Assembly: GCA_965140935.1 (NCBI GenBank)
Contig: CBCSLL010001219.1
Coordinates: 1-39,926 of the forward strand
Direction of reading: 5' to 3'
DNA from: Rotaria magnacalcarata
Taxonomy: Eukaryota
DNA: 39,926 nt
Shown piece by piece: positions 33,958 through 34,578 of this stretch. The notes beneath the pieces were generated by a model, which saw only the letters and a program-made list of their open reading frames with translations, ran no database searches and was not told the DNA's origin. The position numbers and the translations under genes were made by a program. The stretch's first letter is position 1, and every line of letters starts with the position of its first letter.

Positions 33958-34578
33958 ATGTCCTCACAGTGCATCCACATGACGTTGATGTTATTGTTCT
34001 CTATTGTTTTTATCTCCGCCGCCAGAAAGATTAATCACTCAGATCCTAGTATGGATATTTCGGCCTTTATTCCGCCCGACATTGATGCCAACGGGCAGGA
34101 AGAAGACCAACGAGCCGATCCGAGTTTAGGAACGGCAATTGTCAACACACAAATACTAACGATATTCAATTACAAAGGAAATCAAGTGTACGTCTATGGT
34201 GCCCTGTCTAATGAAAATGAAAATAAGCTGACACCTCAGAAGTGGATTTTCTATTTCGTCCCGATAATGATGCCAGTGCAAATGGCAGATGATCCTAATG
34301 GCAGCTGGGTTATTAGTGTGAGGAACGAGGTAAGAGCAAAGCTGATGTTAAGCAACACAGATGTTGAAGTGCTAGCACTAAAAGCCATTGAGAAAAAATA
34401 TGCTCCAGATGAATTTCAATATTCAAAATTCTGGACAGTTGCACCGTTGATGATCGACTCCATCAAAGCTTACGTCGTGAAAGGTGGCAATTCGCCCGTC
34501 GAAGGCGTCTACAGTAATCCGATTACGCATCCAAACGGACAGGAAATAATATTTCGGTTTGTCACCTTTCATATATGA
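33958..34578 (+). CDS. intronless ORF for a 206-aa predicted secreted protein, family unknown
   Basis: Hydrophobic N-terminus MTLMLLFSIVFISAARK suggests a signal peptide; balanced composition; no internal stops. I recognise no family. It lies between the telomere-like hairpins at 33084-33130 and 34665-34740. Confidence 0.45.
   Translation: MSSQCIHMTLMLLFSIVFISAARKINHSDPSMDISAFIPPDIDANGQEEDQRADPSLGTAIVNTQILTIFNYKGNQVYVYGALSNENENKLTPQKWIFYFVPIMMPVQMADDPNGSWVISVRNEVRAKLMLSNTDVEVLALKAIEKKYAPDEFQYSKFWTVAPLMIDSIKAYVVKGGNSPVEGVYSNPITHPNGQEIIFRFVTFHI

Follow-up and report, generated by a model that had tools for sequence, protein, structure and literature searches.

The window, a whole contig of 39,926 nucleotides from the bdelloid rotifer Rotaria magnacalcarata (contig CBCSLL010001219.1, assembly GCA_965140935.1), carries an open reading frame (ORF) at 33958-34578. 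It lies on the plus strand, starts with an ATG and encodes 206 amino acids, as given in the original prediction, and the three sequence motifs quoted there are all present in the translation. The local G+C content is 42%, against about 35% for the window. The main features at and beyond the ORF are the following.

33958-34578, plus strand: ORF of 206 amino acids with an ATG start, probably the 5′ fragment of a collar-family gene with five foreign codons and a stop
33958-34023, plus strand: predicted signal peptide MSSQCIHMTLMLLFSIVFISAA, from a reading of the sequence and the family alignment
34111-34560, plus strand: strong similarity to the N-domain of the family, from tblastn and alignments
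34561-34660: about 100 bp from the gene break to a repeat pair, of no relation to the gene family, supplying the VTFHI codons and the stop
38590-39926: nested copies of a transposon with terminal inverted repeats (TIRs), in coordinates converted from those of locus L005 by adding 24050
39351-39926, plus strand: ‘exon 2’ of the public models P0048, P0228 and P0229, inside the transposon and unrelated to the collar family

The N-terminus of the ORF product reads MSSQCIH-MTLMLLFSIVFISAA-RK, with a hydrophobic core of about 15 residues followed by small residues at positions -3 and -1 (S-A-A, an A-x-A-like site). Judged by eye, it looks like a signal peptide, as had been proposed. A hydrophobic leader is also present at the start of most aligned family members and of the bacterial relative P0138. 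Exact look-up of the 206-residue product returned no record, as did that of P0047, and searches of the ORF against Pfam, NCBIfam and PDB sequences gave no match. A protein search with the ORF finds three relatives with about 60% identity (E 4e-53 for P0001 and 8e-52 for P0002). When 50 proteins of the family are compared with the window by tblastn, all 50 match the ORF, with E-values down to 1e-60 and a span of 33952-34569. Since every one of these proteins matches, the ORF is real coding sequence and not a chance reading frame.

The ORF had been described as an orphan without a recognisable family, which it is not. The longer relative P0002 finds 52 homologues, the long ones of which contain the phage tail collar domain (Collar, PF07484). 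More than 50 homologues exist at the 90% level, and the family profile has 94 matches, each a representative cluster, among 1.84 billion representative proteins, with members in Rotaria, Adineta and Didymodactylos. The family is small, and all of its matches from named animals are bdelloid rotifers (Rotaria spp., Adineta spp. and Didymodactylos). It is not a widespread metazoan family; among named animals it is lineage-specific, one of the alternatives that had been offered. Full-length members (P0055 with 731 residues, P0057 with 688, P0062 with 698 and R. sordida P0233 with 687) have a common layout: a signal peptide, an N-domain of about 310 residues, a Ser/Gly-rich linker and, at the C-terminal end, the collar domain, which is recognised in intact relatives with E-values of 1e-16 to 1e-21. 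No description of this family in rotifers was found in the literature examined, and the bdelloid family of secreted proteins with an N-domain and a collar is apparently undescribed.

The N-domain profile has no match in Pfam, NCBIfam or PDB sequences. The AlphaFold model of P0002, calculated from a 33-sequence alignment, has a mean pLDDT of 75, with values above 90 for the core residues 100-230. Its fold is predicted to be mixed α/β, so the proposal of a β-rich fold is half right, as far as a model of a homologue can tell. The sole significant structural match of the N-domain model is to an uncharacterised protein of Medusavirus stheno (BFVD A0A7S7YF07; Foldseek E 3.9e-8, TM 0.40). Instead of a collar, the N-domain in P0089, P0093 and P0108 (proteins of Didymodactylos carnosus and metagenome contigs) has LamG (Laminin_G_3) and FG-GAP repeats as its fusion partners. 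Since LamG and FG-GAP replace the collar in Didymodactylos, the N-domain behaves as a module that is combined with varied putative binding domains. By analogy with tail fibres, the C-terminal collar domain probably binds a surface glycan, and the intact family members are candidate recognisers of microbial surfaces.

Relatives with the same layout occur in bacteria. P0138, a ‘tail fiber protein’ of 624 residues from Candidatus Hydrogenedentota, has a signal peptide, an N-domain and a collar. It is among the weakest matches of the family profile; comparison of the rotifer N-domain profile with P0138 by hhalign gives a probability of 95.5%. The neighbours of P0138 are ordinary bacterial genes, encoding adenylosuccinate lyase, IMP cyclohydrolase, YkuD and 6-phosphogluconate dehydrogenase. 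P0135, from metagenome collections, aligns with rotifer P0055 in BLASTP with an E-value of 2e-16, collinearly over about 570 residues. The layout of N-domain plus collar is thus common to the rotifer family, P0138 and P0135. Because the bacterial relatives share this architecture, horizontal transfer from bacteria to bdelloids appears to be the best reading of the sequence comparisons. Horizontal acquisition from bacteria is not surprising in bdelloids (PMC8494291, PMC11258130). The suggestion of a horizontally acquired lectin-like gene agrees with the bacterial relatives and with the lectin-like collar, of the receptor-binding type, in intact members, but the collar is absent from the ORF.

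In the ORF, similarity to the family stops abruptly at codon 201, nucleotide 34560 (...EIIFRF). The matches of all 50 proteins stop there, with ends at 34557-34569 and nearly all at 34560, and the ORF is not a complete gene. Its last five codons (VTFHI) and the stop are in DNA unrelated to the family. It had also been called intronless, which is literally true of the ORF, but the ORF is just the 5′ piece of a longer gene. The remaining residues of the family proteins, about 500, are unmatched by tblastn anywhere else in the window, and the window contains no Collar-coding sequence. The match of the ORF ends at about position 205 of the roughly 315 positions of the profile, which leaves the N-domain incomplete, with the helix and strands that lie beyond FRF in the P0002 model missing. 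Two homologue loci, L001 and L002, read uninterrupted through the break point, which is therefore not an ancestral intron site.

The other part of the gene is found in another R. magnacalcarata assembly. Two further assemblies contain loci, L004 and L005, whose sequence is identical to that of the window; adding 24050 to a locus coordinate gives the window coordinate. In L005, on contig CBCPNL020001122.1 of assembly GCA_965120345.2, the rest of the match to P0016 picks up again at residue 72, precisely the residue at which the 5′ part breaks off. This 3′ half begins at 19422, 8.9 kb downstream, contains a short intron and the Collar-coding sequence, and closes with a stop at 20987. When the two halves are joined, with the break located between the codons ...FRF and HCSK..., they form an open sequence of 702 amino acids that aligns with R. 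sordida P0233 in a single gap-free BLASTP HSP (54% identity, residues 38-702 against 21-687). It is this gap-free alignment that indicates that the two pieces were formerly one gene. L004 and L005 are identical through the end of the right TIR of the transposon (about 16780, equivalent to about 40830 in the window) and unrelated beyond it, a divergence due either to structural heterozygosity or to a mis-join at a repeat. The 3′ half is near the ORF in L005 only; L004, L011 and L012, the latter two from older assemblies that agree with L004, diverge at the transposon end. The 8.9-kb spacing in L005 may therefore belong to one haplotype, or have arisen when the assembly was joined through the repeat. 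The halves match end to end whichever origin the spacing has.

The DNA between the halves does not look like a single transposon. The roughly 100 bp after the break are followed by a telomere-repeat pair at 34661-34737, then by about 3.9 kb of AT-rich non-coding DNA and then by the nested TIR transposon copies. Insertion of a single transposon into the gene was rejected as unsupported, since terminal inverted repeats are absent at the break and alignment of the junction flanks scores 15-16, against 16.4 ± 2.4 in shuffles. An apparent GTC..TTTCA duplication at the junctions is not significant. A simple course in which the gene was cut, both ends were capped and the ends were rejoined was also rejected, because about 100 bp separate the break from the G arm of the pair and there is no C arm before the 3′ half.

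The ORF is most likely a recently made pseudogene fragment. Of a gene whose coding sequence was broken between FRF and HCSK, with unrelated DNA now adjoining the break, it would retain the promoter-proximal exon, along with the signal peptide and roughly two thirds of the N-domain. The reading frame enters this foreign DNA for five codons and then stops, and by itself the ORF could give only a truncated product that has neither the end of the N-domain nor any of the collar domain. That the break is recent is suggested by the two halves, which are still open, and by the adjacent repeat pair, which has hardly decayed. The product of 206 residues would end after a β-strand amid the confidently modelled core and would have no collar domain, and it is presumed to be non-functional. 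The 702 open codons across both halves would also fit a gene in use, by way of undetected splicing or of an intact allele. The specific proposal that the gene is intact and functional, and that splicing removes the 8.9 kb between its halves as a recently acquired intron of very large size, agrees with these open codons, with the gap-free join against P0233 and with the GT that follows the FRF codon at 34561. However, the donor, GTCACC, is poor, there is no phase-compatible AG just before the HCSK codons, and the AGs nearby give the wrong frame. Three of the loci have no 3′ half downstream, and the homologues at L001 and L002 are intronless at the break position. An intron at the break was rejected on the want of a compatible acceptor and on the intronless homologues, and an intact gene of this kind is very improbable.

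The public gene models join the ORF to a different sequence. P0048, from R. magnacalcarata, matches window 34051-34557 and 39351-39926 combined with 100% identity. This model, P0228 and P0229 all begin at an internal Met at 34051, so that the predicted signal peptide encoded from 33958 is lost. Their second exon lies in the nested transposon copies. The left TIRs of these copies (CAAGGGGGAACAAGCG...) are located at 38590-38619 and 39150-39179, and next to each come subterminal repeats of the 10-bp unit GAAGTACNNA; the right TIRs are past the end of the window. The TIR, 30 bp in length, is CAAGGGGGAACAAGCGGACTTCTGTACTTC, and nested copies are also present at 14540-19210 of L005. Neither this exon nor the internal ORF of the transposon (MNNIPSSS...CNCNKS...HLRSTNCSH) has a match in Pfam. 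The predictors consistently join the ORF to the downstream exon, and a chimeric transcript of the two is possible. A rival reading takes the chimera as a live gene in which the ORF serves as exon 1; a donor at 34557 would be spliced to the exon at 39351, and the protein of about 400 residues would have a new function. In favour, at least four R. magnacalcarata assemblies carry the same predicted model, there is a GT after 34557 and an AG before 39351, and the phases are compatible. Against this, the second exon sits within a TIR transposon with subterminal repeats and has neither a relation to the family nor a Pfam match, the internal-Met start costs the protein its signal peptide, and the remainder of the original gene exists elsewhere. 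Repeated models in one species may also reflect the same predictor working on the same sequence. A live chimeric gene is thus unlikely, and the splice from 34557 to 39351 is regarded as a probable prediction artefact. The public R. magnacalcarata models for the ORF are transposon-exon chimeras without the predicted signal peptide.

Other parts of the window contain further mobile-element sequences and genes. Transposase-like ORFs are present on the minus strand at 4517-5116 and 5213-5572, the latter with a weak HTH_32 match, and are flanked by inverted repeats of about 115 bp at 4387-4502 and 5589-5702; the element at 4387-5702 is probably a decayed one of the Tc1/mariner type. Two adjacent ORFs at 6844-9643 have a PIF1-like helicase domain (E 3e-22) and are probably a remnant of a Helitron-type or PIF1-family element. 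The minus strand at 19772-23018 contributes exons to a very large gene that encodes PARP, VIT, VWA and EF-hand domains; its product is annotated with about 2000 residues in L004 and L011. Near-perfect palindromes, each compared with its own reverse complement, occupy 1761-2281 (88% over 523 bp) and 15108-15327 (78% over 226 bp). The second has a sub-threshold Rfam match to MIR6459 on both strands, which is taken as chance.

The window is also marked by short inverted pairs of TGTGGG, the bdelloid telomere repeat (PMC7943196, PMC8494291). The layout throughout is (TGTGGG)n-spacer-(CCCACA)n, that is, a G arm followed by a C arm. Eight close pairs are located in the window, and others in the loci L005 and L006.

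34661-34737: pair downstream of the ORF, the best preserved (G arm about 34664-34686, C arm about 34712-34737; ΔG -23.5 kcal/mol, z -5.5)
33083-33128: pair upstream of the ORF, decayed (ΔG -4.3, z -0.78)
32875-32947: pair further upstream (z -4.3)
32682-32732: pair further upstream, decayed
28879-28930: pair after the glycosyltransferase ORF (27304-28380), used for comparison across species
11189-11281, 18005-18062 and 30134-30185: further pairs, G arm first
21107-21205, 23480-23529 and 23778-23839 of L005: pairs with the G arm first
4467-4512, 4706-4769, 5257-5298 and 15186-15244 of L006: pairs with the G arm first

With at most one mismatch allowed, the window contains the pattern TGTGGGTGTGGG 10 times, where 0.01 occurrences would be expected, and 20 shuffles of the window contain zero close pairs. 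No close pairs are present in an internal locus of A. vaga, in another bdelloid contig or in a bacterial contig. The orientation is uniform: in 91 kb, made up of the window and the non-redundant parts of five other Rotaria loci, all 17 close pairs run from G to C and none from C to G. The arms are 12-25 nt in length. In every pair they enclose a unique spacer of 15-45 nt, and the flanks are unique as well; neither target-site duplications nor a common loop or flank sequence was found among the pairs. Between the pairs, the contig falls into blocks of 0.1-12 kb. Directly after the pair at 30134-30185 comes a tandem array, at 30194-30374, whose units are spaced 49 bp apart.

The original prediction had placed the ORF between two telomere-like hairpins. 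Both tracts are present, but the upstream pair folds no better than shuffles. Nor do the two form a special couple, even though they bracket the ORF: two more pairs lie just upstream, and the ORF is one feature among eight pairs. The context said to be common to the ORF and the glycosyltransferase is borne out, with the pair at 28879-28930 lying 500 bp past the glycosyltransferase stop. Because preservation varies from a stable hairpin to shuffle-like folding, the pairs are seen as decaying relics rather than selected structures. Several other candidates were rejected. A fold-back (self-primed) origin does not agree with the pairs, since their complementarity does not reach beyond the telomere repeats and neither flank is an inverted copy of the other. 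A known structured RNA is not indicated, the best Rfam match at 34663-34738, to mir-466 (E 0.14), reaching 28.5 bits where the gathering score is 85. The Rfam scan of the whole window brought up no family at threshold, ribozymes included, and the 3′ ends of Athena/Penelope-type retroelements and hammerhead ribozymes were rejected as well.

The pair at 28879-28930 can be compared across species. The homology with R. sordida (89%) extends to the first base of the G arm and stops exactly there. Beyond this breakpoint, R. sordida has a different sequence of about 130 bp leading to a pair of its own, and nothing is shared past 28879-28930. In R. socialis (97.7%), the G arm has been lost in a 173-bp deletion, the C arm and the next 235 bp are kept, and the sequence diverges near a pair of its own. 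From these comparisons, the pair at 28879-28930 marks the junction of blocks with separate histories and not an insertion into a continuous sequence. In the R. sordida locus L009, an inverted copy of about 68 bp of nearby upstream sequence (5149-5222 against 5522-5589) is found just before the pair of that species, and it may be a trace of fold-back repair at a broken end.

On the basis of this one pair in two species, the pairs are most likely joins of two telomerase-healed ends. Each DNA end would have been capped by telomerase with a few TGTGGG repeats, and the capped ends would then have been joined end to end. The constant order, with the G arm first and the C arm second, is proposed to follow from the joining of two telomerase-extended 3′ ends. 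End joining of this kind would put the pairs at the boundaries of blocks of different origin in a mosaic, subtelomere-like region. Bdelloid subtelomeres typically contain short telomeric tracts beside transposable elements and foreign genes (PMC2861651, PMC7943196, PMC8494291), and the formation of neotelomeres at breaks has been reported in A. vaga (PMC13564844). No description of the strict inverted arrangement was found in the accessible literature, and an earlier one may exist elsewhere. The position of several pairs 80-500 bp past stop codons (the pair at 34661 after the ORF, that at 28879 after the glycosyltransferase and that at 21107 of L005, which lies 120 bp past the stop of the 3′ half of the collar gene) might instead suggest mobile or functional elements, such as transposons of the foldback or MITE type, precursors of small RNAs, or terminator or insulator hairpins that mark the ends of genes. 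Some pairs do fold strongly, and the weak mir-466-like match points the same way, but that match is far under the gathering score. Target-site duplications and a conserved loop or flank would be expected of such elements and are absent, the arms consist purely of the telomere repeat of the species, and decay is strongly variable, down to pairs that do not fold at all. What lies beyond the breakpoint in R. sordida bears no relation to the right flank in the window, so the pair at 28879-28930 did not insert into a contiguous site. Hairpins with a mobile or functional role are accordingly quite unlikely.

It is highly probable, taking both parts together, that a disrupted bdelloid gene of bacterial origin has left its 5′ third as the ORF and that the pairs are the scars of joined, telomerase-capped ends. 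More tentatively, and with somewhat less than an even chance, the regions of Rotaria genomes that are rich in transposable elements and foreign genes may have been built by repeated capping with two to four repeats and head-to-head joining. The joined ends could come from chromosome breaks, from broken-off fragments and possibly from incoming foreign DNA. Every block that runs from a C arm to the G arm after it would represent a piece captured on its own, and genes such as the collar-family copy would have been cut and shuffled along the way. If this is true, the pairs would map capture and breakage genome-wide and would offer a test of whether foreign genes enter as telomerase-capped linear fragments. 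Oriented pairs at block boundaries would provide a sequence-level handle on the assembly of the bdelloid subtelomeric mosaic and perhaps on the capture of foreign genes. For the ORF, the result is mainly corrective: what had looked like a new secreted orphan is a piece of a gene from a horizontally derived, tail-fibre-like family.

Several known systems are similar to those described here. The intact relatives of the ORF have the same C-terminal domain as phage tail collar (PF07484) proteins, bacterial proteins named ‘tail fiber protein’ or ‘microcystin-dependent protein’, and phage tail fibres; the 3′ half of the broken gene matches the solved ‘Long tail fiber’ 8kec_A with an E-value of 1.9e-8. 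With the horizontally acquired genes of bdelloid subtelomeres (PMC2861651, PMC8494291, PMC11258130), the locus shares the setting of transposable elements and short telomeric-repeat tracts, a bdelloid-restricted family with bacterial relatives, and a second bacterial-type gene, the glycosyltransferase, close by. However, the copy in the window is most likely a broken fragment and not an expressed foreign gene. The pairs resemble fusion-type interstitial telomeric sequences and neotelomere scars, which remain as head-to-head repeats after ends have been joined or where telomerase has acted on double-strand breaks (PMC6410037, PMC2246262, PMC13564844), in being short internal runs of the species’ own repeat in the order G then C, and the one Rotaria pair that was compared, at 28879-28930, is at a synteny breakpoint. 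In contrast to fusion-type sequences, the Rotaria arms are very short, 12-25 nt, and each pair has a unique spacer of 15-45 nt. While a single ancient chromosome fusion leaves one such site, the Rotaria pairs recur every few hundred bases to few kilobases, with eight in 40 kb.
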